In this document: piece by piece, positions 649 through 26,084 of the stretch | Layout: each line of letters begins with the position of its first letter | Position numbering within the stretch: the stretch's first letter is position 1 | IMG/VR virus record: IMGVR_UViG_3300011768_000001 | Location: 62,001 to 88,237 of that record | Reading direction: 5' to 3' (one strand) | Length of the DNA stretch: 26,237 bases | Source: an uncultured virus (IMG/VR IMGVR_UViG_3300011768_000001) | Taxonomy: Duplodnaviria; Heunggongvirae; Uroviricota; Caudoviricetes | Notes under the pieces: model-generated | Databases searched by the model: none | The model's input: only the letters and a program-made list of their open reading frames with translations | Told to the model about the DNA's origin: nothing | Program-made: the position numbers and the translations under genes

Positions 649-1089
649 TTAAATATTCCTATCAAATACATAATACCTGTCAGTTGCCACCAACGGTGTA
701 ACTTGTTTTGCAGAACTGTTATAGTAAGTTCTGAACATATTCTTAGCTCGGGTCTTATCAAACCTTGATTTGAGAAATCGTTTAGAATATTTCCAAGCCA
801 TATATTCTTCTTTCAAAATACAACTAGTATTCTGATCAAACATTAACCTTCGAGTATCATCCGTACCAAGTGTTGCTTGGTGTATCTTTTCCCACCTACG
901 TAAATGACCTATCTCGTGCACAAAACTATCTATAAATTTTGGATAGAAAGGATTTATAATCACTACACTTATACCACGACCAAACCGATATAAACACTCA
1001 GCATTATTTAAGTGATGAAAGGGGTTCCACTTTATATTGTACTTTTTGCATATTGCAATGGCCATTAGCCAATCGTTTATTAATTTCAT
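649..1089 (-). CDS. putative zincin metallopeptidase-like protein (HExxH)
   Basis: FVHEIGH motif plus downstream EEYMAW, as in ImmA/IrrE-like peptidases; ATGA overlap with the upstream gene. Confidence 0.6.
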   Translation of the reverse strand: MKLINDWLMAIAICKKYNIKWNPFHHLNNAECLYRFGRGISVVIINPFYPKFIDSFVHEIGHLRRWEKIHQATLGTDDTRRLMFDQNTSCILKEEYMAWKYSKRFLKSRFDKTRAKNMFRTYYNSSAKQVTPLVATDRYYVFDRNI

Positions 1090-2451
1090 TTCTTATCTAC
1101 CTTACAAAATGTTTTGTCTCCAAGAACAGCTTCCCAAGCTGAATACATAGCTTCCCACAAATCTTTCTCAGCGCTTGCTTTAACAAGGCAGCTATCGTGA
1201 TAAGCTAGAACAGAATGACCTTTAGCCCCCATTGCGCCAACGATACGCATCATGATCTTGCTATCAATACTTTGCAACATGATCCCTGCATCAGAAAAGA
1301 AGCTATCACTAATGAAATCGTTATGTTGCTGTACAGCAATCAATACACTAGAATAATCTGTCTGCCCAACCAAAGCATAAAATTCCTGATCTTCAATTGG
1401 TTTACTTCGATCAAGCTTCACCTTGTTACCAAGTGTCCATGCTGCGCTATTCACGTCATTCGAATTCATACCAATCAAAATAGCCAGTTTGGCTAATTGC
1501 CGCACAGGGTTATGTGTTTTACCTGTCCTCTTTTCCCATTCTCTTTTAAGCTTACCGTCTACTTTCAAAAATGACAAATCAGCATCATAAGGAGAGAAGT
1601 CTTTGCCCATCACATCATATATGCTAAATCCATCTGTGTTGTACATAAGTTGGTAGCAGATGTTGGGGTGAATGCACGAGTAATCAAGCTCAATTACAGG
1701 CTCGCCATCAATCTTAAGGGAAGATGCTCGAATGTTCTGAGGAAGCAACTGAACCCCACCGCCTAGAGTATACAACCGTCCACCACTTTNNNNNNNNNNG
1801 ATCACCACTAAAAATACGACGGTACGCTACATCTGCAATTGGTTTGCCATCAAATGTAATCTCACACCCCGATAGTAATTCATTCATACTTTTAACCTCA
1901 CTTTTGATGCTCTTAAATCCTTTGTGCCCACGACTAGGCAGCAATTCTTTTGTTTCTCTGTTTCGAATAATGGCTAGATCATTATCCTCAAGATCTTTCC
2001 ATAGGTTATAAGAAGTATTAACTCCTTTCCACATTTCTTTAGTTCTGTCTCTAAATATCATGCAGGAGGGTACAATATCATCTGCTACAAGTTTACCCTT
2101 CTCCATCTTATAGGATTTTACATACCCTTTATAGATATCAATATAGCCTTTTGACTCAAGAAAATCAACAAGAGATTTTACTTTCCTGTAACCAATACCT
2201 TGTTTTGATTTAGAATATGACTCAGCCCTTAAACTAAATACAAATCCATTAGCTCTTTTGGTTACGCAACGAGCAGAGTTAGAAACCCACCACCTAACGG
2301 CTTCAACCCATTTATTATTTGTATGCTCAAGCATCTGATCTACAAGCTTCTTGTAATATTTAGATTCATGATAGTAAATATAGCTTCTTACACACTGAAG
2401 GTTGATGGAGTACATTTGTTGTTCTGTCATATCTCTTAACTCGTATATCAA
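1086..2451 (-). CDS. small family-A / T7-RNAP-like polymerase (TV-Pol-like); one gene spanning an assembly gap
   Basis: ORFs 1714-2451 and 1086-1808 join across the Ns (RRIFSGD..SGGRLY). Motifs GGRLY, ELDYS (A), RQLAK (B), LQSIDS and YHDS (C). AGGAG RBS with TTG start. Confidence 0.7.
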
Positions 2452-2613
2452 TCAATTAATACTCCTATTAGTTGTTATGTTATTGGTTATAGATAGGCGT
2501 TAGTAGGTAGGCTGTATTGGGAAACATAAAACCTCTACAAGCCCCGGTTTATAAGGGTTTAGGTCTATTCTACTCGGTACTTTCTCTATTTTGTAGCTGA
2601 TTTACATCCGACA

Positions 2614-2642
2614 AGACTACACCCCAAGTCATACCCTGTCAA
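2614..2642 (-). promoter_or_regulatory. sigma70-type promoter for the polymerase operon
   Basis: TTGACA-17bp-TAGTCT on the minus strand. Confidence 0.7.
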
Positions 2643-3908: not shown

Positions 3909-4060
3909 TGTTCAACTTAAACGATTTCACTGCTTGGAAGCTTGGTGATGGATCTTTGGAAGGGAAAGATGTATTGTGCTGGAGTAGAAAAGATGGATAT
4001 TATTTCCTGAAAGCACAGTATGCATTTTATGATAATGTTGTGGGAGTGAGAAATGATTAA
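3908..4060 (+). CDS. hypothetical protein, 50 aa (MFNLNDFTAW...)
   Basis: Hand translation; TAATG coupling; GGAG RBS. Confidence 0.6.
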   Translation: MFNLNDFTAWKLGDGSLEGKDVLCWSRKDGYYFLKAQYAFYDNVVGVRND

Positions 4061-4376
4061 ATTAACCTTCACATACAGCACACTATTTTCACAAGACTTA
4101 ATCGATGTGATTAATGTGTTTGACAGCTTCAAAAATGAAGATAATTCTTGTGAGTTTGAGACAGAGTTTGTAAGGTGGGCATATACACCCTATTCTGAGC
4201 ATCGTTACTATAGGAAAATGCTATGTATTGAGCGATTTGAAGGTAAGGTAGGGCTACCGCACAGGCTAATTGAATTTGACTCAAAAGATGCCCTAGAAGA
4301 GATTATAAGCAGTGTTCTGTATGAACAAGAATATGGTCATTTGGATGAATTAGTAAAAGAGAAATTTTATGACTGA
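4053..4376 (+). CDS. hypothetical protein
   Basis: ORF with GGAG RBS. Confidence 0.75.
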   Translation: MIKLTFTYSTLFSQDLIDVINVFDSFKNEDNSCEFETEFVRWAYTPYSEHRYYRKMLCIERFEGKVGLPHRLIEFDSKDALEEIISSVLYEQEYGHLDELVKEKFYD

Positions 4377-4449
4377 GGGGTTGTAATTTCGATTGAAATG
4401 TGGGATAGTGGTTTTGCTGGTTAAATTAATTGGAAAAGGATATTAATAA

Positions 4450-5250
4450 ATGAGTGGAAGAAATCGTGCATTTCTGGCTGTAGTGGATGGGCAGGAAGTA
4501 GAGATTCCTCGTAAGAAAACACGCTCCACTCGTAATGGTGGGGTGAAACCTGAAATTAAAGAAAAGTTTTTAGAAGAACGTAATAATCCACCGCCGGTTG
4601 TTGCTAAAACCGCAAAACAAAAAGAGTACTTTCGACTTCTTGAAGATCCTGAAGTAAAAGCAATCGTGTGCCTCGGGCTCCATGGTACTGGTAAGACCTT
4701 CTGTGCTGCTGTAGTAGCTGCTGACAAGTTCCGCAAAAACGAGATTAAACAGATCATTGTAGCTCGTGCATATGTGCAGACAGGTAAGACTTCAGGATAT
4801 AAACCGGGTAGTTCCTTGATGAAATTATACCCGTATGTGCGTAACGTACTAGACACTATTAAATCTCGTATTGGAGCCGGTGCATACGAAATTGCACTGA
4901 AAGATGGGGAATCAGGTGAAATTCAGGTGCAAGAGGTCGAGTCCATTCGTGGTCGATCATTTGATCTTCCCTCATATTTGATCATTGACGAAAGCCAACA
5001 AACAACAAAAGAAGAAATGCAAAGTATCGTAACCCGAGTTTCTGACAACTGCAAATTGGTACTCTGCGGCGATATTTTGCAAAAAGATATTCAAGGTGAA
5101 TCCGGTCTTGAATGGTTTATGTCGTTTTCCAAACGGCACAATTTAAAGGGTGTTGCGGTTATTGACTTTAACTCACCAGATGAAATTGTTCGGGGTGGCT
5201 TGGTTCGGGATATCGCAATTGGTTTGGCGAAGGACCGGGAGAATGAATGA
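4450..5250 (+). CDS. phoH: PhoH-family ATPase
   Basis: Walker A GLHGTGKT, IRGRSF, IIDESQ and CGDILQKD motifs. Confidence 0.93.
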   Translation: MSGRNRAFLAVVDGQEVEIPRKKTRSTRNGGVKPEIKEKFLEERNNPPPVVAKTAKQKEYFRLLEDPEVKAIVCLGLHGTGKTFCAAVVAADKFRKNEIKQIIVARAYVQTGKTSGYKPGSSLMKLYPYVRNVLDTIKSRIGAGAYEIALKDGESGEIQVQEVESIRGRSFDLPSYLIIDESQQTTKEEMQSIVTRVSDNCKLVLCGDILQKDIQGESGLEWFMSFSKRHNLKGVAVIDFNSPDEIVRGGLVRDIAIGLAKDRENE

Positions 5251-5956
5251 TATAAACGCAGATTTTAAGTGGGAAGGTGCGGTATTTAATAGGCTGACCG
5301 TCATATCAAGATCGGAGGATAAAGTCTTCGCCAATGGAGGGCGAAAGATCCGAGTTGTTGCTGAGTGCAGTTGTGGTGTAATAAAAACTTACTATTTATC
5401 TGCGCTAAAGACAGGCAACACTAAGTCTTGTGGATGTTATAATCTTGAACGAATCAGTAGTCATGGTATGTACGGGACACGCCAGTATCAAATATGGGCT
5501 GATATGAAGAATCGATGTAATGATAAAAGTCACGAAGGTTATGGTGAAAAAGGTGTAACATATCAAGAGAGTTGGGGAGATTTTCAATCTTTTTGGTCAG
5601 ACATGGAAGAAGGTTACTCAGAAGAGTTAACCATTGAGCGAATTGACCCCAGTGGTAATTACACAAAAGAAAATTGTAAATGGGCTACCAAAAAAGAACA
5701 AACGAGGAATAGAGGTAAATATTCTAATAATAAAACTGGGACTACTGGGGTAGTCGCCCTAAAGTCAAAAAACGGAGATATATTTAGCTACAGAGGTACT
5801 GCACAAGGGTTGGATGGTAAGTCCATTAGTAAGCAGTTTTCTATAAACAAATTTGGGAAGGATGGGGCCTATGAGCTTGCTTGTAAATATAGTGAATCTG
5901 TGATGGAAGAATTGAACAAGTTAGGCGCTAATTATTCAGAAACCCATGGGCAGTGA
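5243..5956 (+). CDS. free-standing HNH homing endonuclease with AP2-like C-terminus
   Basis: CSCG..SCGC, WADMKNRC, TIERIDPSGNYTKENCKWAT, NNKTGTTGV; start reassigned to ATG 5243 (GGAG RBS), which overlaps the phoH stop. Confidence 0.88.
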   Translation: MNDINADFKWEGAVFNRLTVISRSEDKVFANGGRKIRVVAECSCGVIKTYYLSALKTGNTKSCGCYNLERISSHGMYGTRQYQIWADMKNRCNDKSHEGYGEKGVTYQESWGDFQSFWSDMEEGYSEELTIERIDPSGNYTKENCKWATKKEQTRNRGKYSNNKTGTTGVVALKSKNGDIFSYRGTAQGLDGKSISKQFSINKFGKDGAYELACKYSESVMEELNKLGANYSETHGQ

Positions 5957-5965
5957 GGAAAAAAT

Positions 5966-6730
5966 ATGAACGAAGAAAATCTAATCCCTATGTTTAAGGA
6001 TCAGTGCGAAGTCAGTCAGTCAACATCTGTCTACAACGCCTATGACATTTATTTGGACGAGGAAATTAAAGATCCAACCTACTACCGGCAAGCATTCCAA
6101 GTGCTGCGTAGCGCCCAGCAAGGGGATTTGGTTCGGATCTACATTTCCTCGGTAGGCGGCAATATGAACTCAGCTGCGATGTTCAAAAACTGCATCCAGC
6201 AATGCCAGGCAGATGTAATTGCAGTTATTGAAGCTGAGGCTTATTCAGCGGCATCATTGATTGCACTTTGCTGTTCGGGGATTGAAGTAAAGCCATATGC
6301 CACTATGATGTGTCATTCGGCGGCGTTCGGATCTGGCGGGATTGTGCAGAATGTTCGTGATCATGTGGAGTTCATCGGCCGGAATGCTGAAGCTTTGATG
6401 GAAGAAATCTATCAGGATTTCCTTACCCCAGAGGAATTTACGGATTTGAAGCGAGGCCGAGAAATTTGGTTGGATCATGTTCAGATTGGCGAGCGTTTGG
6501 ATAAGATGTTTGAGGCACGTAACGCAAAAGGTTGTAATGACCCAAATTGCACAGAATGCGGTGGTGCACAAGATGATTTTGAAGAGGAGGAGTTTGATCT
6601 GGAAGCTTTGATTGAGGCTAAGGTACAAGAAGCCCTTGACGCGTATCAAAAGAAGCTTGATACTGCTGCAAAGAAAGCAGCCACAGCCGCTAAAAAGAAA
6701 CCTGTAAAAGTTATTGAGGAGAAAGAGTGA
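5966..6730 (+). CDS. ClpP-like serine protease
   Basis: YISSVGG, AYSAASLI (catalytic Ser) and MMCH (His). Confidence 0.85.
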   Translation: MNEENLIPMFKDQCEVSQSTSVYNAYDIYLDEEIKDPTYYRQAFQVLRSAQQGDLVRIYISSVGGNMNSAAMFKNCIQQCQADVIAVIEAEAYSAASLIALCCSGIEVKPYATMMCHSAAFGSGGIVQNVRDHVEFIGRNAEALMEEIYQDFLTPEEFTDLKRGREIWLDHVQIGERLDKMFEARNAKGCNDPNCTECGGAQDDFEEEEFDLEALIEAKVQEALDAYQKKLDTAAKKAATAAKKKPVKVIEEKE

Positions 6731-7737: not shown

Positions 7738-8020
7738 AGCCAAGAAGAAAGAGATTACAGCAGTTACAGTTTCTTATGAGGAATTCATTAGCTACGATCA
7801 TATTCCAATTGGTAATTTTTACTTTAAGAATGCACTTGGTGAAATAATTTATTTGAAAACTTCAATTAGGGAGTTGGCTCAGGAGTGGATAGATAATTAT
7901 GCTGGAATTAAGGGCAAGTATGTAGCGATCCCATCAAAGGTATTTAAAACCAAGTCCCGCCAAGAAAGTGGTTTGAGTACGGCCACGGGAACGAGTACCA
8001 GACGCGGACAACAGAGATGA
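7730..8020 (+). CDS. hypothetical protein
   Basis: ORF with GAGGAG RBS. Confidence 0.75.
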   Translation: MNEAKKKEITAVTVSYEEFISYDHIPIGNFYFKNALGEIIYLKTSIRELAQEWIDNYAGIKGKYVAIPSKVFKTKSRQESGLSTATGTSTRRGQQR

Positions 8021-8424
8021 AACAGAAGTATGCATTAGCCTTAATGGATATGACCTGTAGGTTCGGAGAAACCTCAGAGGCTAAAAGACTTCAAGTTGGT
8101 GCAATGATTTATAAGAATGACTCTTGTATTTCGATGGGAGTAAACGGCCAACCACCGGGCTGGATTACAGAAGTCTGTGAAGATGAACATGGACAGACAC
8201 TTTCAACGGTACGTCACGCTGAGGCTGCCTGTTTGGAGAAACTGTACCTTAGCACAGAAACATCTGAAGGTGCTGATATGTTCATATCTCACGCACCATG
8301 CTTAAGCTGTAGCCTTAAAATAGTTGCTGCTAAGATCAAGCAAGTATGGTATCGTAATGAATACAGGTCTTTAGAAGGTTTGAAGTATTTACAGTCTAAA
8401 GGTATAAAAGTAATTAAAATTTAA
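8017..8424 (+). CDS. dCMP deaminase
   Basis: RLQVGA, GVNGQPPG, HAE and PCLSC zinc motifs. Confidence 0.9.
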   Translation: MKQKYALALMDMTCRFGETSEAKRLQVGAMIYKNDSCISMGVNGQPPGWITEVCEDEHGQTLSTVRHAEAACLEKLYLSTETSEGADMFISHAPCLSCSLKIVAAKIKQVWYRNEYRSLEGLKYLQSKGIKVIKI

Positions 8425-8435
8425 AGGAGAACAAA

Positions 8436-8861
8436 ATGACTAAAGAAATGCTAAGTCCTGAAGAAATCAAGCCAACAAAGGATCTTCAATTTTATAGCTT
8501 GAAAGAATACATGCGAATGCTTGGCTATGAATGGGGTAAAGAGATTGCTCTATTTGATGAGCCTAATTATTTCATCAGCTACGACTACAAGAATAAACAT
8601 CGTCGCTGTATCTCCTTCGGAAGCTCCGTAGACTTGTACAATGGGCGTTATGTAGATTCACATGGTAAAGGCTATAATTGCCCCTTTGACTTTGATCCAT
8701 ATAGTATTCGACGTGCTGAAGCTGCTAAGGTTGTAAAGGGGCTTAAACTGCAACTGTGCAAGAAAACTGGCTACGTTAAAACCCAGAATGATATCGTTGA
8801 GTTTGTAAAACCTGAGTATTACCAAATGTTCATCAACAGTCCAAAATATTTCCCATTTTAG
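8436..8861 (+). CDS. hypothetical protein
   Basis: ORF with AGGAG RBS. Confidence 0.8.
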   Translation: MTKEMLSPEEIKPTKDLQFYSLKEYMRMLGYEWGKEIALFDEPNYFISYDYKNKHRRCISFGSSVDLYNGRYVDSHGKGYNCPFDFDPYSIRRAEAAKVVKGLKLQLCKKTGYVKTQNDIVEFVKPEYYQMFINSPKYFPF

Positions 8862-8870
8862 GAGATAGAT

Positions 8871-9062
8871 ATGAGCAACAAGATTGTATTATTCCAAAAT
8901 GGGAGTTGGCTGTGGGAGTCTGAGGCAAAGCCTGAATGGCTGGAAGATAAGCACATCCTCATCACTGTAGGAGATGGATTCACAGATCGGGATATTAGTC
9001 AAATGATTAATTCCTATTACATAGAAAATCTTGATTATATTTTTGAAAAAGAAATTGCATAA
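8871..9062 (+). CDS. hypothetical protein
   Basis: ORF with AGGAG RBS. Confidence 0.75.
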   Translation: MSNKIVLFQNGSWLWESEAKPEWLEDKHILITVGDGFTDRDISQMINSYYIENLDYIFEKEIA

Positions 9063-9066
9063 TTTT

Positions 9067-9102
9067 GGCCAGATGCTCTTTACAGGGTGTCTGGCCTTTG
9101 TT
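9067..9102 (+). terminator. intrinsic terminator
   Basis: 12-bp stem GGCCAGATGCTC/GGGTGTCTGGCC followed by TTTGTT, just after a stop codon. Confidence 0.75.
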
Positions 9103-9107
9103 ATTAT
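9079..9107 (+). promoter_or_regulatory. sigma70-type promoter with its -35 in the terminator loop
   Basis: TTTACA-17bp-TATTAT. Confidence 0.7.
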
Positions 9108-9138
9108 TGGTCCTAGGAAAATTAACAGGAGAAACTAA

Positions 9139-9350
9139 TTGACGCCAAAGCAATTATTAAAACAACTTGAGCTAGCCAACAAACAGCTTGTGTTGGTATC
9201 GAATCGTCTACACAAAATATCTCAGAAGCTTGGTATTGAAGACCGCACTTTAACTGCCGGAACGAATNNNNNNNNNNAGAGAATCAGGATATCAAGAAAG
9301 TGATTAGGGATGTAGAGGGTCTGCTTGAGAATGGAAATAAGGCTGTTTAA
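9139..9350 (+). CDS. hypothetical coiled-coil protein spanning an assembly gap
   Basis: AGGAG RBS with TTG start (MTPKQLLKQLE...); a compatible frame after the Ns ends at 9350. Confidence 0.55.
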
Positions 9351-9465
9351 CGCACGATAGTGTATAAGACGTGGGGTAGCCTAGGTCAGATATAGAAAAC
9401 GCCTAATAAGTGGCTTACAGAGCGTTTAAGGGGTATTTAAGAAGGTATTATGAGGAGTATGTTTA

Positions 9466-10128
9466 ATGCTTAAGCATTTTGATATAAATTTAGAAGGTCG
9501 TGACTTCGTATGTGGTGACATACACGGATGTTTTAATAAACTTCAGAAAGAACTGGATGCAATCGGGTTTGACGAAAATAAAGACCGGCTGTTCTCTGTA
9601 GGAGACTTGGTTGATCGTGGTCCTGAATCAATTGACTTTTCAGACTGGCTTCGTAAACCATGGTTTCATGCTGTAAAAGGTAATCATGAGGTGCTGACAA
9701 TTGAAGCTGTAAAGAATGGACCAGATAGCAACGAGTCAGGCTTGCACTACATCAACGGTGGTGTGTGGCTATGTGGACTGCCTACAGTTGAAAAACAGTG
9801 TATTGCTATTGAGATGGAAGAATTACCACTAGCCATTGAAGTTGATACCAAATATGGTCTTGTAGGGATCATCCATGCAGAAAGTCCACACAATAATTGG
9901 TATATTGCACGAAAGATGCTCTCAGATCCATCAGAGCACACCAAAGCTGTTGCGTTGTGGGCACGAACCAAGATTAGCAGTGGAGATGAGACAGAAATCA
10001 AAGGCTTGCACAAACTTTTCGTTGGACACACGCCTGATAATGAGGTAAGGTGTCTGGGAAATGTGTTTTATACGGACACTGGTGCATGTTTCAAAGGTGG
10101 TAAGTTGACTATTTTGCAGATTAATTAA
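9466..10128 (+). CDS. Ser/Thr protein phosphatase (lambda NinI/PrpA-like metallophosphoesterase)
   Basis: GDIHG, GDLVDRG, GNHE, GHT and DTGA motifs. Confidence 0.93.
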   Translation: MLKHFDINLEGRDFVCGDIHGCFNKLQKELDAIGFDENKDRLFSVGDLVDRGPESIDFSDWLRKPWFHAVKGNHEVLTIEAVKNGPDSNESGLHYINGGVWLCGLPTVEKQCIAIEMEELPLAIEVDTKYGLVGIIHAESPHNNWYIARKMLSDPSEHTKAVALWARTKISSGDETEIKGLHKLFVGHTPDNEVRCLGNVFYTDTGACFKGGKLTILQIN

Positions 10129-10141
10129 GGAGAATGAGAAA

Positions 10142-10573
10142 ATGTTTAAGCGGATAAAAGAGTTTCTAAACCCAGCACCAAAATACACATGCCCGCCTGA
10201 AGAAAGGTACTATGCTGAGCGGGGAATTTCAGAACCTGTAATTGCAATTCTTAAATCAATGCACCAAAGAAGTAAAGATTGGAAAATACGTCAAACCAAA
10301 CTAGACAGTAATTTAGATCTTATTTATGAAATTGTTGATAAGAAGAGTGGACTCCGCTTTGAGATAACGAGTAGTATCTACGACACCTTGGATATTTCTA
10401 TTAAATATCAAACCTTGGAGTGGATGACATGGAAAGAACAAGTAGCTATAGTCAATAGTTGCCGGAATCTTTACCTTAAAAGAATTTCAAGACTACAAGC
10501 AATTCAATCGGTAACAGAGAAAAAGAAAACTGATAAAGTACGAAACTACTGGAAGGAGAAATACCAATGTTGA
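10142..10573 (+). CDS. hypothetical protein
   Basis: ORF with AGGAG RBS. Confidence 0.8.
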   Translation: MFKRIKEFLNPAPKYTCPPEERYYAERGISEPVIAILKSMHQRSKDWKIRQTKLDSNLDLIYEIVDKKSGLRFEITSSIYDTLDISIKYQTLEWMTWKEQVAIVNSCRNLYLKRISRLQAIQSVTEKKKTDKVRNYWKEKYQC

Positions 10574-10800
10574 AGACCCGGATTATTTCAGGTAAACAAA
10601 GCTTCTACGATTCAGTGACAGGGCAGACGCTTACGAATATTAGAAGCGTAAGCTTCGATTCAAAACCCGGAATTATTTCCACTGTAATAACTAAAGAGGG
10701 AGTGTATTATGCGTATTTTCCAGATAAAAATGGAAAAGTAAAATTAACCAACCTTGAATCTTTGATTAATTCAGGGGAATCCATTCAAGTGGTAAACTGA
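10567..10800 (+). CDS. hypothetical protein
   Basis: ORF with AGGAG RBS. Confidence 0.7.
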   Translation: MLKTRIISGKQSFYDSVTGQTLTNIRSVSFDSKPGIISTVITKEGVYYAYFPDKNGKVKLTNLESLINSGESIQVVN

Positions 10801-11792
10801 TGTTAATGGGAAGAGGAAGACTTGATAAAAATGCTTTAGTAGGTACTTTTTACGGCAATAATAACCAAATAGAAATTCTGGAGTTTATTACTGTTACTGC
10901 AATGGGGAGTATATACAAAATTGTTTGCCATGAGTGTGAAAAGGATAAAGAATTACACGGTGATGCAATTTATGATGTACCCTTAGCAAGGCTTAAGAGG
11001 AATTCTCTGCCTTGTGGTTGTGCCCCAACTCCTCATTGGAGCAAAAAACAAAGGACAACTCTGGCGGAACGTGTAGCTAAAAATTTAGGTTATATCTTTC
11101 ATGGCTGGAAGAGTTATGGCAAAAACTCTAAAAATAGGGTGGTAGTAATTGAATGTCTAAAACACAATTTACAAGAAACACCGACGTGGTCAGACTTTAT
11201 GAGAAGAAGAGCCGCAGGTGGTTGTTATGAATGTCGAAGGGAGAATTTAGGTAAAAGGGCAAGCAAACCTGATGAAGTGATGATAGAATCATTTGAGAAT
11301 AAAGGCTCGTATCCCGAAGGTACGGTATTTGAGAGAAGTGAACGAAAAAATACAGATGGTAGTGGTGGATTCTGGTTTATATATTGCTCTGGTTGTGGAG
11401 AAAAGACAGAAGCTTGTTCTGTAGTTATAAACTCCGGTGTCTCATCTTGCAGTTGTAATAGACAACAACCTAACCAAGCATATATACTAGCTATCTCAGA
11501 TAATAACGATAATTATATTAGTTTGAAGTACGGAATAACCAAGAATATTAAGTTTAGAAAGAAGGATATTCAGAAAAGAACGCCTCTTGAAGTAGATTTA
11601 ATAGGGTGTTGGAGTTTTGATGGTATACATTCATGTCGGGCTGCTGAAAACTTTTGTAAACAAGAATTTGGACAGGGTATTATGAGTAGAGCAGATTTAC
11701 CCGATGGGCACACGGAAACTACATATTGTTATAATCTTGATAGGATTATACAAATCTATGAAAATTTTGGAGGGATTAGGATCTATGAATAA
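10800..11792 (+). CDS. putative homing endonuclease: multiple Zn-finger motifs and a C-terminal GIY-YIG-like domain
   Basis: Several CxxC/CxC pairs; AYIL..LKYGIT..R..AAE..GHTET. Confidence 0.65.
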   Translation: MLMGRGRLDKNALVGTFYGNNNQIEILEFITVTAMGSIYKIVCHECEKDKELHGDAIYDVPLARLKRNSLPCGCAPTPHWSKKQRTTLAERVAKNLGYIFHGWKSYGKNSKNRVVVIECLKHNLQETPTWSDFMRRRAAGGCYECRRENLGKRASKPDEVMIESFENKGSYPEGTVFERSERKNTDGSGGFWFIYCSGCGEKTEACSVVINSGVSSCSCNRQQPNQAYILAISDNNDNYISLKYGITKNIKFRKKDIQKRTPLEVDLIGCWSFDGIHSCRAAENFCKQEFGQGIMSRADLPDGHTETTYCYNLDRIIQIYENFGGIRIYE

Positions 11793-11958
11793 GCCAGAGC
11801 CACCTAAACCACCCCTGATGCGCTTAGGCTGTAACGGAAACCCTTGCCCTCTGTGTGGCAGCGGGATGAAGCCTAAAGGACTATTCGGCAAGCTATTTGG
11901 TGTATTTAAAGGTTGTTACCAAGAGAAATGCGAGAATTATTGGGGGAATAGTAAATGA
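11785..11958 (+). CDS. small Cys-rich protein
   Basis: Internal ATG with AGGA RBS; CPLC...C..C. Confidence 0.65.
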   Translation: MNKPEPPKPPLMRLGCNGNPCPLCGSGMKPKGLFGKLFGVFKGCYQEKCENYWGNSK

Positions 11959-12137
11959 ACGATAAAGTAAAACAGATTACGCAAGACCTTGCAAATGCTA
12001 TCATACGAGGTGATACTATGGTTCCTGTGGGAAATTTAGGACCATTGCTTGAGTATATTGAGGAGCTTGAGATGAATTTGGTTGACTTAAAGAAATATAT
12101 TGATGATACTTACTATGACAATGATTGGGAGGAATGA
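11955..12137 (+). CDS. hypothetical protein
   Basis: ORF with ATGA coupling. Confidence 0.7.
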   Translation: MNDKVKQITQDLANAIIRGDTMVPVGNLGPLLEYIEELEMNLVDLKKYIDDTYYDNDWEE

Positions 12138-12139
12138 AA

Positions 12140-12394
12140 ATGAATAAAGTGACTAATGGTGATCCTAGTAAATTCTTAAGTGGTGGAATTGGTGATAACG
12201 GTAAAGACTGCCGAGTAATTTTCCACCCTAGCGAAGATATTACTAATGATCCTTTTAATGAAGGTATTATTGAAGGGTTGAAAATATCTTTAGTGCTTAT
12301 TAAAGAACAACTAGAGATTAATCCTAATAGTAAAAAGCTACAAAAGCTAGCTAAGAAATTGGTTCAGACTCTCGATTCTTATAAGAGAATTTAA
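12140..12394 (+). CDS. hypothetical protein
   Basis: ORF with GGAGG RBS. Confidence 0.7.
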   Translation: MNKVTNGDPSKFLSGGIGDNGKDCRVIFHPSEDITNDPFNEGIIEGLKISLVLIKEQLEINPNSKKLQKLAKKLVQTLDSYKRI

Positions 12395-12396
12395 TT

Positions 12397-12597
12397 ATGG
12401 AAGATAAGTGGGAGCAGTATAAGAAAGATAATTGTTCAGATTTTGATGGTGTAATTGAACAATTACACAAAGACCATCCAGAGCAAATGGAGGAGGCAAG
12501 GATTTGGGTAAAGCAGTTTATGGATGAACAAGAAAGTCTTGGTTATGAATTTAATAAATTAATTGAAGATAATTATTGGGAGCTTTTGTTAGAATGA
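12397..12597 (+). CDS. hypothetical protein
   Basis: ORF in a tightly packed operon. Confidence 0.7.
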   Translation: MEDKWEQYKKDNCSDFDGVIEQLHKDHPEQMEEARIWVKQFMDEQESLGYEFNKLIEDNYWELLLE

Positions 12598-12743
12598 TTC
12601 TACAATTCAAAAGACCTTGCACAATATCTCAAATCACAATACAAGTACATTATCAAACAGATGTTCTTGAGGATGGTAGTGTTTGGTATAGGATGGTGGA
12701 TATTAAAAATGGAGAGTGGATGGAGTGGGAGATGTTAGGATGA
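12594..12743 (+). CDS. hypothetical protein, 49 aa (MILQFKRPC...)
   Basis: Hand translation; ATGA coupling at both ends. Confidence 0.6.
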   Translation: MILQFKRPCTISQITIQVHYQTDVLEDGSVWYRMVDIKNGEWMEWEMLG

Positions 12744-12937
12744 GCGTATTAAAACGCTGTCAAGACTATTATGAAAGGCGCCTATCTCAATTTGGCTATA
12801 CACCTACAAAGATTATGATGTACCAAAGTGATTTGGATCAGTTAATTGAAGAATTGAAATATGTGCCTAAAGCTTCTTGTGGTGAAGGTGGGTACGAGAT
12901 TATGGGAATGGAAATTATTGTGTTGGAGGGAGAATAG
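12740..12937 (+). CDS. hypothetical protein
   Basis: Internal ATG (MSVLKRC) with GGAG RBS. Confidence 0.7.
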   Translation: MSVLKRCQDYYERRLSQFGYTPTKIMMYQSDLDQLIEELKYVPKASCGEGGYEIMGMEIIVLEGE

Positions 12938-13111
12938 ATGAACATTGAATATACTGTTACTCACTGCTATCGTAAAGACTACGACGATGAGCGTTGGGAT
13001 GTTTTAGCGCGTTTTGATAGACTAGAAGACGCCATTGAATATGATGATGAACACTCGTCTATGGTTGAGGATGGATTTTTGTTTATTACTGTAGAGTGGT
13101 GTACGGAATGA
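12938..13111 (+). CDS. hypothetical protein, 57 aa (MNIEYTVTHC...)
   Basis: Hand translation; GGAGGGAG RBS. Confidence 0.65.
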   Translation: MNIEYTVTHCYRKDYDDERWDVLARFDRLEDAIEYDDEHSSMVEDGFLFITVEWCTE

Positions 13112-13335
13112 AATTAGCTAGTATCGAAGAGTGGGGAGAACATGAACCTTGTCTTGGATTTGATGAACTTAGAACTCCTTTTGAAGATTACATGAGATCT
13201 GAGTATGCAAGTCCCGATTTAGACTGGAATGATTACGGATTTTATCAAGATGTAAAAGTTAATCTAAGGTATATTGGGTTTTGTGAAGGAGCCTTCTTTA
13301 TGTGCCATCACAAGGATAATTTAATTGAAATCTAA
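13108..13335 (+). CDS. hypothetical protein
   Basis: ATGA coupling (MKLASIEEW). Confidence 0.7.
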   Translation: MKLASIEEWGEHEPCLGFDELRTPFEDYMRSEYASPDLDWNDYGFYQDVKVNLRYIGFCEGAFFMCHHKDNLIEI

Positions 13336-13540
13336 CGGCTGCAACGAAGACGGTTGGGATTTGTTTGAAGAGTCTACACACAAAGAGTTCGAGGAGTATG
13401 CTTGTAGACAAGGCTATGATCTGTATCGTCATCCAGAAGATACGTGGATTTACTTTAACCAGCGTACAGAGGATGCTTGGAGAATGTTTCATGTAGGGCA
13501 TGTTAAGGGGAGGAATTGGAATGAAACCGCATATTCGTAA
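13325..13540 (+). CDS. hypothetical protein
   Basis: ORF with TTG start and AGGA RBS. Confidence 0.65.
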   Translation: MKSNGCNEDGWDLFEESTHKEFEEYACRQGYDLYRHPEDTWIYFNQRTEDAWRMFHVGHVKGRNWNETAYS

Positions 13541-13754
13541 AGGAGATCAAGGGAAGTATTGGTGCAATGCCCCTCAAGATTATATTCCAAATGATGACGC
13601 CGATTGCCAAGAGTGGTATTCCTACTCTGCCTGTGGCTGCGGAAATACCGTGGACGAGGCATATCGGGATTGGGTAAAGGACTGTATAATGCCAGATGAG
13701 GGTAGTGATGATTGGGATGACTTTAAAAAGTGGATGGAGGGTAAAGATGAATAA
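13521..13754 (+). CDS. hypothetical protein
   Basis: Internal ATG (MKPHIRK) with GGAGG RBS. Confidence 0.7.
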   Translation: MKPHIRKGDQGKYWCNAPQDYIPNDDADCQEWYSYSACGCGNTVDEAYRDWVKDCIMPDEGSDDWDDFKKWMEGKDE

Positions 13755-13956
13755 ATCTATTTGGTGCGTAATGCAAGAAGATGCTGAAAATTCAGTAACT
13801 GTGTGTTTAGGTTGCTATGAGTCTGAAAAAGAAGCTGATAAAGCTTGGGAGTATTGGGATTCAAATTCAAAATATAGCCCTTGGACCACACACTGGATTA
13901 TGCAGACAGAATTATTTGGTAATTTTGAAGGTCAAATGAAGGGTTTGAAGGAATGA
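13747..13956 (+). CDS. hypothetical protein
   Basis: Internal ATG (MNKSIW) with GGAGG RBS. Confidence 0.7.
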   Translation: MNKSIWCVMQEDAENSVTVCLGCYESEKEADKAWEYWDSNSKYSPWTTHWIMQTELFGNFEGQMKGLKE

Positions 13957-14255
13957 AGACATTCGAAGAACTTACATGGCTGCAAAAGATTAGGATGGTA
14001 CAAGACTTTATTGACGACGACGCTGAAAACTATACACTGTCTATGGATATATTACTACAATGCGATTTTATAAAAGAGGAGTTGGACAAGTACCCACCAA
14101 TGATAAAAGCTGTTCAAGATTGTAAAGATGGAAAAGACCCGTACATGTGGAAGCTAGATATGCAACAGGCTGAAATGGAGATTTGTTCTAAATGGGTTTA
14201 CAGGATTTATAGGAGTGTTCAGAGGGTACTCGATAGGGGAGATAAATTAGTGTGA
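13953..14255 (+). CDS. hypothetical protein
   Basis: ORF with ATGA coupling. Confidence 0.75.
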   Translation: MKTFEELTWLQKIRMVQDFIDDDAENYTLSMDILLQCDFIKEELDKYPPMIKAVQDCKDGKDPYMWKLDMQQAEMEICSKWVYRIYRSVQRVLDRGDKLV

Positions 14256-14818
14256 CAGATATTAAAGAACAAGCTGAAAGTCTTAGAAAGCAAGGGATGA
14301 CATATGCACAGATATCAAGCACCTTAGATGGTGCTGTAAGTGTTGATTGGTGTAAACGACAGCTTAAGGGTGTTGAATACAAGAAGATAGAAGATCCTAT
14401 ACTTTCTGAAATCTTAATCCTTGCTCTAAGGCCAGAAGGCTGCACTAACTACGAACTGACTGGAGTGGTTATGAAATATAGCCCAGACTTGATTGATAAG
14501 AAAGGAGCCTACATGAGTGCATATAAGCGTAAAGCCCGAGATAAGAATAGGAACTCTTTGTTTCGTCCTTCATGGATTAGCCCTACAAAGGCATTTGAAA
14601 GCTCTCAGGCTATGTACCAGATTGCTGATAGCATGTATGAGAGGCTACAAGAAGCTGTTGCTGACTACTCTGCTATGTTCCCTGAAGTGCAGGATAAGAA
14701 GGCCATCCTTGATGAGATAGTCAAAATATCCAACGCTCATTTAGTCAAAGAGGGGCTTAGTACAAGGCTTTCAAGGCATGAGATGGTGGTAGAGAAGTTA
14801 ATTGAAAGACACCAGTAG
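14252..14818 (+). CDS. putative HTH DNA-binding protein
   Basis: N-terminal KEQAESLRKQGMTYAQISSTL..VSVDWCKR fits a helix-turn-helix pattern. Confidence 0.65.
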   Translation: MTDIKEQAESLRKQGMTYAQISSTLDGAVSVDWCKRQLKGVEYKKIEDPILSEILILALRPEGCTNYELTGVVMKYSPDLIDKKGAYMSAYKRKARDKNRNSLFRPSWISPTKAFESSQAMYQIADSMYERLQEAVADYSAMFPEVQDKKAILDEIVKISNAHLVKEGLSTRLSRHEMVVEKLIERHQ

Positions 14819-14822
14819 AGGG

Positions 14823-14916
14823 CTGCACTTTGTTGTCCTATTAACTCATAAGTGCAGTGCACACCAAAGTTGTATAGGGTGCACTTGATTTCTGATAATA
14901 TTATATAAGTGCAGTG
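14823..14916. repeat. two tandem inverted-repeat units TGCACTT-N19/20-AAGTGCA
   Basis: Half-sites at 14824-30, 14850-56, 14880-86 and 14907-13; extra GTGCAC at 14857. Confidence 0.75.
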
Positions 14917-14929
14917 GAGTGTGGTAGTA

Positions 14930-15109
14930 ATGAGACATAATGGCCTTAGTGAGCATGTACAAGGTGACGATTTGGAGTATGTTCAAAACTTTATAAATAC
15001 ATCCAATAAAGGACTTAGTAATAATTTTATTGGGTATGAGGTAGTGGTAGATTTGATACTAGCTTTAAGGGACACTAATGAAAGATTAAAAGAGTTAGAA
15101 AGTAAATAA
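14930..15109 (+). CDS. hypothetical protein
   Basis: ATG with upstream GGAG; last rightward gene. Confidence 0.6.
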   Translation: MRHNGLSEHVQGDDLEYVQNFINTSNKGLSNNFIGYEVVVDLILALRDTNERLKELESK

Positions 15110-15124
15110 CAAAACCCCCTGGAA

Positions 15125-15160
15125 AGACACTTACTAATACAAGCTAAGTGTCTGTTTTTA
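15125..15160 (+). terminator. intrinsic terminator ending the rightward block
   Basis: AGACACTTA/TAAGTGTCT stem followed by GTTTTT. Confidence 0.6.
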
Positions 15161-15509
15161 TATGTCCAAAATATTTATAAGCCTTATTCTGCAAGGGCTG
15201 TAGGAAGATTCATACTTTCAAAATACTTGTCGCGGTAGCTGAAGAGTGCATCTGTTCTGTAAAATCTTGGATATCTATCTGAGGTGTTTAACGCGTCTAC
15301 CCACCACAAGCAATACCCATGCCATAATTCCAAAATATGCTGATAAATTATTCCCTATCAAACTTCCTCTCCCAATAGATGTTCATCACAGATATTATCC
15401 AATACCCTTAAGCTAACCCTGGCATGATATTAGGCTTGCATAGATGATGCCAAGATGCTTACTAAATAAAACACTTGACATTACGAGAATAATACTCCAC
15501 AGGATACCA

Positions 15510-15537
15510 ATTTAACATAATGGGTGTTATGCGAACT
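15510..15537 (-). other. XerC/XerD dif-like recombination site
   Basis: Minus strand AGTTCGCATAA-CACCCA-TTATGTTAAAT; the XerD arm is identical to the proteobacterial consensus. Confidence 0.85.
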
Positions 15538-15830
15538 GTGTAGAAGGTATCGAGCATACTATACCTATCCTGTCAAGCTATCTATTTCACACTGTCTACA
15601 CACACCTTCCCTAACACATTATAGGGCCATATGTAAAGACTAAGATGATTGTTATAGAATACTTTGATTAATTGTAATTGGCTGGTAGATTGTAGCTATA
15701 TAGGTTGACAAAGGGATTGGTTTGTGTATTTGGGAGGGATTATTAGGTGGAATGAAATCGTTACAGGAGGGAAATGTGTACCGGCTTAACTACCTTTGGT
15801 AGTCTCGCCTACTGATAGTATCCTCATATA

Positions 15831-15937
15831 GTGACTAAAACACTCTTTCCAGTCACATTGTAGACTGTATACTTCAAGGTTTAAAGACAGATTACTCAAT
15901 CTGTACATGTTGTGACTATAATAGTCTTTTTAGTCAT
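15831..15937. repeat. pair of palindromic 26-bp sites GTGACT-N14-AGTCAY
   Basis: 15831-15856 and 15912-15937, 20/26 identical. Confidence 0.7.
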
Positions 15938-15947
15938 TTTACAGACG

Positions 15948-15973
15948 TAATAAAGGGGACTACATAGTCCCCT
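15948..15973 (-). terminator. intrinsic terminator ending the leftward block
   Basis: AGGGGACT-ATGT-AGTCCCCT followed by TTATTA. Confidence 0.75.
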
Positions 15974-15996
15974 GAAGTTCCCTGCTAGAATTACTT

Positions 15997-16263
15997 TTAG
16001 AAACGTACACCATTTGCACGATACCACTCACAAGCTTCATCAGTTACGAAATCACAGCAAGCTAAGATAGTCTCAATACTGCACAACCAAGCTGCATAGA
16101 AGTCTTCTGTATAACGACCATTCTCAGCGTACACTGTTACACCATCGGTGTGTTCAGCATTGTCTAAGGCTTCACAGTGAACACGTTGAACTATGTCTAG
16201 ACTGGACCCAAACTTAGCGATAGGCATGTCGTCCAGTTTTTGCATCAGTTCACGTTTGTTCAT
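15997..16263 (-). CDS. hypothetical protein
   Basis: Start reassigned to MNKREL (AGGAG RBS), downstream of its own promoter. Confidence 0.75.
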   Translation of the reverse strand: MNKRELMQKLDDMPIAKFGSSLDIVQRVHCEALDNAEHTDGVTVYAENGRYTEDFYAAWLCSIETILACCDFVTDEACEWYRANGVRF

Positions 16264-16302
16264 TTCTATACTCCTTTGAGGGTTTGTCTCTCTGTGGTCT
16301 TC

Positions 16303-16331
16303 ATTATCTCTAAAAGATGCTCGTCTGTAAA
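16303..16331 (-). promoter_or_regulatory. sigma70-type promoter
   Basis: TTTACA-17bp-GATAAT with an A-rich upstream tract. Confidence 0.7.
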
Positions 16332-16360
16332 GCTTTATTTTCATCTAAATCGCTGTATAT

Positions 16361-16516
16361 TCACAACACCCTCTGACAACCTTCCACACCAACAATCTCA
16401 GGAAGAAGCTTGTAAGCCTTCTCGATAGCCTGTAGCTCATTTTTAGCATGGATGAGTACAAGAAGATGATTGGAAACATTCGTCTTGTAGTGGAGGATGT
16501 AGAGGATCGAGGTCAT
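16361..16516 (-). CDS. hypothetical protein, 51 aa (MTSILYILHY...)
   Basis: Hand translation; AAGGT RBS. Confidence 0.55.
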   Translation of the reverse strand: MTSILYILHYKTNVSNHLLVLIHAKNELQAIEKAYKLLPEIVGVEGCQRVL

Positions 16517-16527
16517 GATAATTTACC

Positions 16528-16815
16528 TTAAAAGTAAACAAACATTGGGGTGATAGTACTACAAGCTTTAACTTGTACGTGTATCATAGCAGATTGAACA
16601 GAAGATATAACCTTTTGAAAGAATGATTTAGGTTTTACATACACTTCATAAGGGCAAGCATTCAATACCATCTCTGTAACATCTTTACCAATTCCACCTT
16701 CACTGTCAACCAAGTAGAATGTTGGATCTTGGAACTCGTGGAAAGCACCATGCTGCACGCATACCATAATCACTTTACCTTTAGCATTGTAAAGATTACC
16801 AATTAAACCCATCAT
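16528..16815 (-). CDS. hypothetical protein
   Basis: ORF in the operon; start uncertain. Confidence 0.6.
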   Translation of the reverse strand: MMGLIGNLYNAKGKVIMVCVQHGAFHEFQDPTFYLVDSEGGIGKDVTEMVLNACPYEVYVKPKSFFQKVISSVQSAMIHVQVKACSTITPMFVYF

Positions 16816-25041: not shown

Positions 25042-25085
25042 ATTATCTCTCCAATTACATTTGTGTGTTTTGTTTCGATGGAATG

Positions 25086-25144
25086 ATTATGCCAAAGAAA
25101 AAGCCCACAGCATAGACAATAATTTATATTGAATACTGTGGGCT
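25086..25144 (-). terminator. intrinsic terminator overlapping a probable extended -10 promoter
   Basis: AGCCCACAG/CTGTGGGCT stem, then TTTTCTT, then TGG-CATAAT. Confidence 0.65.
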
Positions 25145-25159
25145 GATAGATTTTGTTAA

Positions 25160-25429
25160 TTATTTCTTGAGTGTGTACACATTCTTTGTTGTCACGATTG
25201 TTTTCTTTTCAAATCCCTCTTGAACTGTAATATCCATCCAACCCCATTGATCAGAAACCACAACAGATACATGGGCGAAGCTTCCATCTATAGAATTTTC
25301 AAGATAAAAACATTGAAGCATATCTCGCTTATGTGGCTCTGTGGACAAATCTAGTGAGTCTTCTGGATCATATCCATTACTTCTACACCATTCGTCGAAG
25401 TCACTATAGTTTTCAAATTCATGTATCAC
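25160..25429 (-). CDS. hypothetical protein
   Basis: ORF with AGGAG RBS. Confidence 0.75.
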   Translation of the reverse strand: MIHEFENYSDFDEWCRSNGYDPEDSLDLSTEPHKRDMLQCFYLENSIDGSFAHVSVVVSDQWGWMDITVQEGFEKKTIVTTKNVYTLKK

Positions 25430-25596
25430 TTATTCAACTCCTTAATATATTTATCAACACTATCCATTGCATCTTTGATTTCCCACCAGATAGCGGTCAA
25501 TTTCTCATCTTCTGTGTCAATATCTGTCACTTCATTGAGAGCATTTTCAAGCCGCTCATGACATTCAATGAGTGCAACTGTCTTCTCGATGGTCAT
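25426..25596 (-). CDS. hypothetical protein, 56 aa (MTIEKTVALIE...)
   Basis: Hand translation; coupled at both ends. Confidence 0.65.
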   Translation of the reverse strand: MTIEKTVALIECHERLENALNEVTDIDTEDEKLTAIWWEIKDAMDSVDKYIKELNK

Positions 25597-25754
25597 TTGC
25601 CTGCTCCAATAATTGTAGTAATAACACGTTCTTTATCACACTTAACACATTTCTCAACATGTTGAGACTTACAAGGCCAATCATCGTTTAGAGCAAGAAA
25701 CAGATTATGCTTATGTTTCCATTCATGTTTACAGAACCAAGATTTAATGTTCAT
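25593..25754 (-). CDS. small zinc-ribbon protein
   Basis: Start MNIKSW; CKHEW...CVKC. Confidence 0.7.
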   Translation of the reverse strand: MNIKSWFCKHEWKHKHNLFLALNDDWPCKSQHVEKCVKCDKERVITTIIGAGK

Positions 25755-25905
25755 AATTTGTAGTCCTATTTGAGTATGCACTTTTTTGGCACTCATTATA
25801 ATCTCCTACTTCTTGATTATAATATTCCCAGAATTCATCCTCCGTAATTGTTTTGGATTCAAGTTGCACTAGAAGATCTTGCCTAATAGACTCTAAGTAA
25901 TTCAC
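25744..25905 (-). CDS. hypothetical protein, 53 aa (MNYLESIRQD...)
   Basis: Hand translation; GTGA coupling. Confidence 0.55.
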   Translation of the reverse strand: MNYLESIRQDLLVQLESKTITEDEFWEYYNQEVGDYNECQKSAYSNRTTNYEH

Positions 25906-26084
25906 TTTACTTTCCATTTCTTTTCAAGAAATTTGTAGATATCTACTAGCATACGTTCATGAGTATCAAAATCATCCTCGTCACAATCGTTCATAAAATC
26001 GCATACAGACGGAATGTCTGCAAGAACATCCGAAACAACTACACGGTCTTTCTCAAACTGGTCTTGCTCTTTACAGTAGCTCAT
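25902..26084 (-). CDS. hypothetical protein
   Basis: ORF with AGGAG RBS. Confidence 0.7.
   Translation of the reverse strand: MSYCKEQDQFEKDRVVVSDVLADIPSVCDFMNDCDEDDFDTHERMLVDIYKFLEKKWKVK

Follow-up and report, generated by a model that had tools for sequence, protein, structure and literature searches.

The stretch of DNA considered here, which we call the window, comprises 26,237 nucleotides (positions 62,001 to 88,237) of the IMG/VR virus record IMGVR_UViG_3300011768_000001, and constitutes the final 26 kb of this 88,237-bp record (coordinates on the whole record are prefixed G000), which is rated complete. On its minus strand lies a gene coding for a polymerase of the divPolA2 family, preceded by a ribosome-binding site, a conserved non-coding block and a putative promoter (Table 1). 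The original prediction, made from the letters alone, had seen here a stand-alone polymerase mixing motifs of DNA polymerase A (Pol A) and the RNA polymerase of phage T7, and had allied it with the TV-Pol group; we find this interpretation to be partly supported and largely right.

Table 1. Features of the polymerase locus in window coordinates; residue numbers follow the relative P0003, and fractions give the share of 143 aligned relatives with the named residue
Feature	Positions	Strand	Remarks
divPolA2-family polymerase gene	1086..2451	-	~454 codons with the gap read as 3 bases
Predicted catalytic core: beta-hairpin, palm, fingers	1086..1789	-	
YHDS, motif C on beta-hairpin	1191..1202	-	H409 142/143, catalytic D410 143/143, S411 125/143
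LQSIDS	1260..1277	-	Q384 129/143, D387 138/143, S388 132/143
RQLAKLAILIGMN, motif B / O-helix	1464..1502	-	R308 140/143, K312 143/143
ELDYSCIHP, motif A	1665..1691	-	catalytic Asp D247 143/143; His H252 140/143
GGRLY, beta-hairpin before motif A	1770..1784	-	Arg R216 in 143/143
10-N scaffolding placeholder standing for 3 real bases	1790..1799		Leu-Glu codons: C-TTG-AA in the nearest relative
Predicted N-terminal alpha/beta domain, 217 residues	1800..2451	-	replaces Pol I exonuclease and thumb regions
AGGAG ribosome-binding site	2462..2466	-	10 nt 5' of TTG start
Conserved ~95-nt block, predicted 5' leader	2501..2596	-	conservation above that of coding sequence
Putative sigma-70-type promoter	2614..2642	-	TTGACA 2642-2637, 17-base spacer, TAGTCT 2619-2614

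The gene runs from a TTG start codon at 2451 to a TAA stop codon at 1086-1088. The TTG is unchanged across all nine aligned relatives, several relatives have MIYEL as their N-terminus, and an alternative in-frame ATG at 2430 matches the start of two 445-amino-acid (aa) records, P0003 and P0004. A run of 10 N divides the open reading frame (ORF) into an N-terminal half (P0001, 1800-2451) and a C-terminal half (P0002, 1086-1787) and, taken literally, puts them one base out of frame. Three sources concur on what the run conceals. The protein P0003, with 98% and 99% identity to the N- and C-terminal halves respectively, reads FSGD-LE-SGGRLY across the junction, i.e. two codons are hidden by the gap. 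In an IMG/VR contig that encodes P0003 (L007), GATC and AAAGT are separated by TTG, hence by exactly three bases. Finally, contigs from three of three public runs, belonging to two studies, span the N run but omit seven letters; one of them is 99% alike over 618 bases and two are about 95% alike. The window polymerase gene is one intact gene, split solely by a scaffolding gap, as had been supposed when the two halves were first joined, and closure of the gap with three bases introduces neither a frameshift nor a stop codon. The whole record has four identical 10-N runs, all of which look like scaffolding placeholders. The other three (window 9268-9277, which is G000 71268-71277, along with G000 29390-29399 and G000 34367-34376) are probably of the same kind as that in the polymerase gene, and hence the genes crossing them may be falsely split too.

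Translation recovers all five of the motifs quoted in the original prediction at their expected places, and an alignment of 143 diverse relatives, 22-69% identical to P0003, allowed their conservation to be gauged. Six residues, R216, R232, D247, Y279, K312 and D410, are constant throughout, and the three relatives without Arg at R308 have Lys there. Going by motif register, and not by a structural alignment, we take the conserved set to correspond to R668, R682, D705, R754, K758, Q849, H881 and D882 of the Klenow fragment of Pol I. On this register, every residue that metal-dependent nucleotidyl transfer and the binding of the triphosphate require is invariant. Three positions of the predicted nucleotide pocket are conserved in a family-specific manner, seemingly unlike every ordinary Pol A. 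H252, five residues after the motif-A Asp, presumably takes the place of the steric-gate Glu of Pol I (Klenow E710); T7 RNA polymerase has Gly at this position. In motif B, the position of L316, which we take to be that of Klenow F762, is Leu in 100 relatives and Met in 36. N320, presumably the counterpart of Klenow Y766 and of the ribose-selecting Tyr of T7 RNA polymerase (Y639), is Asn in 129 of the 143, Tyr in 9 and Phe in 5, in keeping with the earlier remark that the motif-B Tyr is missing. Where the third residue of motif C is not Ser, it is Gly (9), Ala (4), Glu (3) or Cys (2). The HDS sequence is hence a genuine family trait, but the RNA-polymerase-like reading that had been placed upon it exceeds the evidence. 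Taken together, the conservation pattern indicates that this divPolA2-family protein is an active enzyme whose nucleotide pocket is unusual, and it is compatible with the use of either deoxynucleoside triphosphates or nucleoside triphosphates, a choice which sequence does not settle.

A confident AlphaFold2 model of P0003, built with 66 aligned relatives, attained a predicted local distance difference test score of 91.3 and a predicted template modelling score of 0.85. Foldseek searches with this model against the PDB gave 123 matches at E<=1e-3; the top matches listed are all family-A DNA polymerases, with Pol I of Aquifex as the best (3e-6), and include the Bst, apicoplast, T7, Klenow and Taq enzymes. 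The VIA search, which is independent of Foldseek, also reached RNA polymerases, namely the yeast mitochondrial (8.6), T7 (7.8), human mitochondrial (7.5) and N4 mini-virion (6.5) enzymes, with RNA polymerases trailing the DNA polymerases by 1.3 to 5 Z units. In the model motif A lies at the end of a beta strand (241-248) followed by a helix, and motif C at the turn of a beta-hairpin (406-408, 411-415), like in Pol I. The right-hand palm and fingers fold is thus present as modeled, with DNA polymerases as the nearer solved relatives, bearing out the initial placement of the protein in the superfamily that unites Pol A and T7 RNA polymerase. In the N-terminal domain, residues ~29-150 display a weak likeness to a winged helix-turn-helix whose beta wing is long. 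When this domain was folded alone, the 50 matches listed were solely of the winged-helix type, with no exonuclease or thumb homologue among them, which agrees with the claimed absence of an exonuclease domain. A long helix (172-186) precedes the hairpin in the model, and a helical pair is not obvious.

The polymerase protein matched no family in Pfam, NCBIfam or PADLOC. Neither half nor P0003 matched any Pfam model, PF00476 included, at E<=1 or 0.1, and a search of the whole genome with PF00476 gave no match, the regular DNA polymerase included. Searches of the PDB with phmmer gave no match, and a profile search of the same database recovered no polymerase, its sole row being a spurious one to ribosomal L20 (E 0.4). 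The ESM Atlas offered unnamed clusters only, and megablast of the window's first 8 kb against phages gave no match. Nevertheless, phrog_4756, which has no functional label, is matched end to end, at positions 2-226 by the N-terminal half (E 5e-28) and 229-437 by the C-terminal half (E 2e-42), and tblastn retrieved full-length relatives from 238 phage records, often with 2-3 copies per genome. These comprise 114 Rheinheimera barbaviruses, 97 Vibrio phages including ICP1, 14 Aeromonas phages and others. In a library clustered at 50% identity, a profile of 66 relatives recovered 7461 cluster representatives with E<=1e-3, among them 4834 with E<=1e-10. As both halves match phrog_4756 and so many cluster representatives are recovered, the motif set is not due to chance.

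A family with these properties is already in print: divPolA2 was described computationally (Virol J 2024;21:200, PMC11348598) in a section entitled 'Two novel phage PolAs'. That section reports it as first found in 110 barbaviruses, with up to three paralogues, a variable neighborhood, an active palm, neither an exonuclease nor a homologous thumb, and at the N-terminus a globular domain of unknown kind; the functional options offered there are a repair DNA polymerase or an RNA polymerase. The published representative AUR84708 of Vibrio phage 1.063.O (MG592441.1, 25469-26761) aligned with our family profile in hhalign over 357 columns spanning both domains (probability 97.6%, E 4.6e-12). Profile comparisons also recovered gp034 of the barbavirus Barba21A (E 5.4e-74), the homologue in vB_PsaM_M1 (E 1.9e-142) and ORF100 of ICP1 (probability 100%, E 2.8e-49). 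By these profile comparisons the window protein is a member of divPolA2 and not a new kind of polymerase. The original prediction was made without knowledge of this publication, which leaves the same choice between DNA and RNA polymerase open.

The proposed affinity to TV-Pol is harder to judge. TV-Pol was defined by Iyer, Abhiman and Aravind in 2008 (PMC2579912) by a bi-helical coiled-coil thumb, a beta-hairpin Arg, two palm Asp residues and an RxxxK signature in the fingers, with no nuclease and with linkage to D5-like helicases or to a resolvase, integrase or transposase; in one instance the thumb is displaced by another globular domain. The Microcystis phage Ma-LMM01 carries such an element (PMC2579912). 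In this phage our profile matched one 506-aa ORF (BAF36121), which sits next to two transposase genes, and given these neighbors we infer it to be the TV-Pol meant by those authors. In hhalign the profile aligned with BAF36121 as a single sequence at a probability of 49% (E 1.7e-4), and with an alignment of BAF36121 and six relatives at 84.2% (E 7.4e-6) over 171 columns, from the hairpin to motif C. Common to both are a GGGxQ signature, a His five residues past the motif-A Asp, and HD followed by a small residue. Hence, divPolA2 may be a branch near TV-Pol. The profile link is a remote one, the catalytic features of TV-Pol are present and its defining gene context is absent; the earlier label exceeds the evidence.

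The genome is that of a contractile-tailed phage, with genes for a sheath, baseplate, terminase and many HNH endonucleases. It encodes a regular DNA polymerase of 727 aa (G000 7995-10178; phrog_1252, E 4.5e-178), a primase/helicase (phrog_239), a Gp2.5-like SSB (a protein that binds single-stranded DNA), an exonuclease, ribonucleotide reductase and thymidylate synthase. The presence of a separate full-size replicase and primase-helicase makes the divPolA2 enzyme an accessory one. So does the lack of a homologue in Felix O1, the type phage of the Ounavirinae, the subfamily in which the nearest named relative for the polymerase gene, Pseudomonas phage vB_PsaM_M1, is classified. In both the window and vB_PsaM_M1 the polymerase gene heads a leftward unit opposite a divergent PhoH/protease unit. 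In the window this divergent unit (4450-6730 and 8017-8424) codes for PhoH, an HNH endonuclease, a ClpP-like protease and a deoxycytidine monophosphate deaminase, of which the pairing of PhoH and protease is common to the two phages. More generally, the distance from a divergent strand switch to the gene downstream of it is 0-2.1 kb for seven of the nine copies examined, namely those of the window, vB_PsaM_M1, ICP1, 1.063.O and Barba21A, plus one copy from 2L372X and one from qdvp001. Two minima are seen in the cumulative GC skew of this genome, a local one at the region upstream of the gene and another at 3 kb. When 33 related loci were clustered, no ORF family was found to be conserved immediately beside the polymerase gene.

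The upstream region presents two conserved elements. Aligning the regions 5' of the gene revealed the promoter-like TTGACA-17-TAGTCT, of which TTGAC is kept across relatives, and vB_PsaM_M1 has TTGACA-N16-TAGAAT in the same place; it is thus plausible that the polymerase gene has its own promoter, as had been proposed. A consensus scan detected no minus-strand promoter within 2452-2751, the site having gone unflagged because its -10 element is weak, and promoter-like sites overall occur at chance level (12 found, 11.0 expected). Downstream of the putative promoter, an exact 14-mer of the ~95-nt block recurs in 10 related loci, always ~140-150 nt 5' of the gene, and degenerate forms of the block occur in more distant relatives. 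The block occurs once in the 88-kb genome, the sole extra match being one of 19 nt with 1 mismatch inside a gene (G000 45333-45351), and has no match in Rfam. As a structured RNA element it was rejected: RNAalifold gave 0 pairs for 16 sequences and -0.95 kcal/mol for nine, and the single-sequence fold had a z of +1.23. A short CCC/GGG hairpin can be traced in it by eye, with AACCC/GGGTT and AGCCC/GGGCT as possibly covarying forms, which we do not count as evidence because the alignment shifts in register.

A search for RNA data from the phage of the window listed none, but the homologue of ICP1 offers a view of the gene during infection. ICP1 ORF100 (L050, ICP1_2006_E, 3996-5663) is 28% identical in tblastn and, at 555 aa, has ~160 extra N-terminal residues relative to the window protein; a subset of metagenomic relatives likewise has 500-560 aa. 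In published ICP1 RNA-seq counts (PMC7567579), ORF100 has 12,916-33,422 reads at 4 min, 20,238-41,302 at 8 min and 10,834-16,752 at 16 min. The same data give 6,349-26,313 reads at 4 min and 58,704-110,512 at 8 min for the replicase ORF58, with the capsid gene ORF122 being late (PMC7567579). As ORF100 is already high at 4 min and approximately level thereafter, with ORF58 rising later, ORF100 is an early gene. ORF100 is located at 56,043-57,710 in the strain used (PMC7567579). In the relevant account of ICP1 replication, the read peak at 8 min lies 'near the 60 kb position', in 1-kb bins, and is read as a bidirectional theta origin (PMC7145576). Our literature search found no paper naming the ICP1 theta initiator.

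On the above evidence we lean, with moderate confidence, towards the view that the window protein is a catalytically competent, accessory, exonuclease-free divPolA2 polymerase, whose most likely task is to start or prime DNA synthesis at a particular site early in infection; both its choice of sugar and its role in infection are predictions. In the enzyme as we picture it, a beta-hairpin, palm and fingers of the family-A type are joined to a winged-helix-like domain at the N-terminus, where thumb and exonuclease are usually found, and this domain would position the enzyme on DNA. The enzyme would work on a DNA template with the 3'-OH terminus held by minor-groove contacts from the conserved Arg and Gln, and the altered sugar/base pocket (His, Asn, Leu/Met) would confer relaxed or different nucleotide selection. 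Rather than taking part in bulk synthesis, the enzyme would act early and at a particular DNA site, most likely as a primase-polymerase of the kind proposed for TV-Pol and shown for CcPol-MP. This priming role is helped by that prediction for TV-Pol and by the precedent of CcPol-MP, the PolA-SSB primases of staphylococcal cassette chromosome (SCC) elements, for which a de novo start of DNA chains is reported (PMC10061031).

The proposal can be carried a step further, though we regard this step as doubtful: divPolA2 enzymes might constitute a third kind of replication initiator, one derived from Pol A, which recognizes a site at its own gene and lays the first primer of theta replication. The winged-helix N-terminal domain would then recognize a site at or beside the gene, which in the window would be the 95-nt block (2501-2596), and the first theta primer, of RNA or DNA, would be made by the early divPolA2 enzyme and then extended by the regular replicase. 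Such an initiator would explain the position at divergent switches, the ICP1 theta origin within a few kb of the gene, and the loss of the residues for deoxyribose and base-pair fidelity.

Several observations weigh against the priming role and its connection to an origin. The idea is circumstantial, coming as it does from a homologue just 28% identical, and the ICP1 origin is placed only 'near 60 kb' at the resolution of 1-kb bins, 2-4 kb from ORF100. Two of the nine gene copies, the second paralogues of qdvp001 and 2L372X, are more than 4 kb from any strand switch, and the GC skew, which follows the coding strand and has two minima, does not single out the site. Felix O1 replicates without the gene, and phages that carry it, such as the present one, have a primase already. 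Neither a helicase nor an SSB partner was found conserved beside the gene, whose neighbors are variable. Finally, our literature search yielded the name divPolA2 in the 2024 paper and its preprint only, and no experiments or biochemical data on members of the family, so that the original statement that the biochemical function is unknown stands.

These points leave room for other explanations. The option listed first for divPolA2 in the section describing it (PMC11348598) is a repair DNA polymerase, and an error-tolerant, exonuclease-free, Pol I-like enzyme for repair, gap-filling or lesion bypass, able to copy damaged or modified phage DNA while bulk synthesis is left to the main replicase, is an alternative that we consider unlikely but worth serious attention. 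Against it are the strong expression of the ICP1 homologue at 4 min, before replication, and the lack of repair genes conserved next to the gene; it also leaves unexplained the conserved non-coding block and the DNA-binding-like N-terminal domain. A minimal DNA-dependent RNA polymerase, in which a palm and fingers like those of T7 RNA polymerase would be directed by a winged helix reading a promoter to transcribe a few phage genes or make an RNA primer at an origin, appears to us quite improbable. The DNA polymerases lead in the structural comparison by the margin given above. The O-helix Tyr that we take to select ribose (T7 Y639) is Asn in most relatives, and the bulky His at the gate could still exclude a 2'-OH. 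Moreover, the upstream block has no repeated promoter-like copy elsewhere in the 88-kb genome.

Far less probable still is a selfish or mobile gene of the TV-Pol type, replicating a small element of its own or behaving like a homing gene, with nothing to offer the phage. The remote profile link to the probable TV-Pol of Ma-LMM01, which adjoins transposases, the variable neighborhoods, the several paralogues per genome, the abundance of HNH homing endonucleases in this genome and the absence from Felix O1 are all consistent with mobility. However, no integrase, resolvase, transposase or D5-like helicase is adjacent in the window or the clustered loci, no flanking repeats were seen, the gene heads the leftward unit facing PhoH and the protease in the window and still does so in vB_PsaM_M1, and the catalytic residues are all under purifying selection in the 143 relatives. 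A catalytically dead, polymerase-derived DNA-binding regulator we deem scarcely credible. The resemblance of the N-terminal domain to a winged helix would suit such a regulator, and the conserved block 5' of its own gene could serve as an autoregulatory operator, but both catalytic Asp residues, the triphosphate-binding Lys and the hairpin Arg are present in all 143 relatives, with Arg (140) or Lys (3) at the motif-B position, and with its catalytic residues invariant the protein is not expected to be a dead enzyme. Our preference remains an accessory polymerase that initiates or primes DNA synthesis at a specific site.

The remaining neighborhood is variable. A 146-aa ORF (window 649-1089, minus strand) overlaps the polymerase stop by 4 bases, occurs near the polymerase in two of the 33 related loci and is missing next to a 100%-identical polymerase. 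Its HEIGH (HExxH) motif suggests a small zinc metalloprotease, and it has no match in Pfam, PHROG or NCBIfam. The most widespread nearby families, of 58 aa (12 loci) and 137 aa (16 loci), lie 1-3 kb downstream and have no family match. In Vibrio phage qdvp001 (L053 3116-6453) one of the two divPolA2 paralogues is followed directly by a gene for a UvrD-like superfamily 1 helicase (Pfam UvrD-helicase, E 2e-14; UvrD_C, E 8.5e-16), the sole helicase linkage seen. Elsewhere, the genome has four paralogues of the phrog_681 'endonuclease' (324-342 aa; G000 445-1419, 25076-26068 and 59370-60398, and window 10800-11792) and at least 10 HNH endonuclease genes, two of which flank the regular DNA polymerase. 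Rightward and leftward gene blocks converge on an ORF-poor stretch of ~1.2 kb (window 14819-15996), to which the original prediction had also pointed and within which falls the maximum of the cumulative GC skew (G000 77-78 kb); it is free of tRNAs, as is the window as a whole.

For the window itself the result is a mostly ordinary one, namely an intact member of a published family interrupted by a scaffolding gap. The wider interest lies in a very large family, present in well-studied phages such as ICP1, that has no Pfam, NCBIfam or functional PHROG label. The divPolA2 protein is close to the smallest natural core of the Pol A type, with a foreign DNA-binding-like domain replacing the thumb. 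Whether its product is DNA or RNA, and whether it can start a chain, bear on how DNA polymerases gave rise to RNA polymerases and primases, on how divPolA2 phages start replication, and possibly on enzyme engineering.

Set against known systems, the window protein shares its fingers-palm fold with Pol I and its kin (Klenow, Bst, Taq, T7 DNA polymerase and the apicoplast enzyme), but differs from them in lacking a PF00476 match, an exonuclease domain and a canonical thumb, and in having the steric-gate Glu replaced by His, the O-helix Tyr by Asn and Phe by Leu/Met, in Klenow numbering as we take it. With the T7-like single-subunit RNA polymerases it shares a similar fold of the catalytic core; in contrast to these, the mitochondrial enzymes and the N4 virion RNA polymerase, it is half the size or less, scores lower in structural comparison than with DNA polymerases, and has neither their N-terminal domain, specificity loop nor ribose-selecting Tyr. 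The catalytic features of TV-Pol are all present (GGR216LY, D247, R308xxxK312 and D410), and the two have in common a minimal, nuclease-free Pol A-like core in a viral genome beside a normal replicase. However, the bi-helical coiled-coil thumb is not evident in our model, and the 33 clustered loci, like the window and its genome context, yielded no D5-like helicase, resolvase, integrase or transposase. CcPol-MP is likewise a small A-family polymerase domain from a mobile genome with its N-terminal region lost or truncated; it requires an adjacently encoded small OB-fold partner and is helicase-linked (PMC10061031), whereas the window polymerase has no conserved neighbor, and the two are likened by description only.

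The closest correspondence is with divPolA2 itself, at least as set out in the section that introduced it. The published proteins and ours have in common a length of ~430-450 aa, the conserved palm residues, the lack of an exonuclease, a globular domain at the N-terminus where the thumb would be, the occurrence beside a regular replicase in variable neighborhoods, and 1-3 paralogues in some phages. They differ in provenance, the former coming from barbaviruses and the window copy from an uncultivated 88-kb myovirus akin to vB_PsaM_M1. Beyond that account, the possibly new elements are the winged-helix lead for the N-terminal domain, the family-wide counts for His252 and Asn320, the remote link to a probable TV-Pol, the block conserved upstream of the gene and, for the ICP1 homologue, its early expression and its nearness to the origin.

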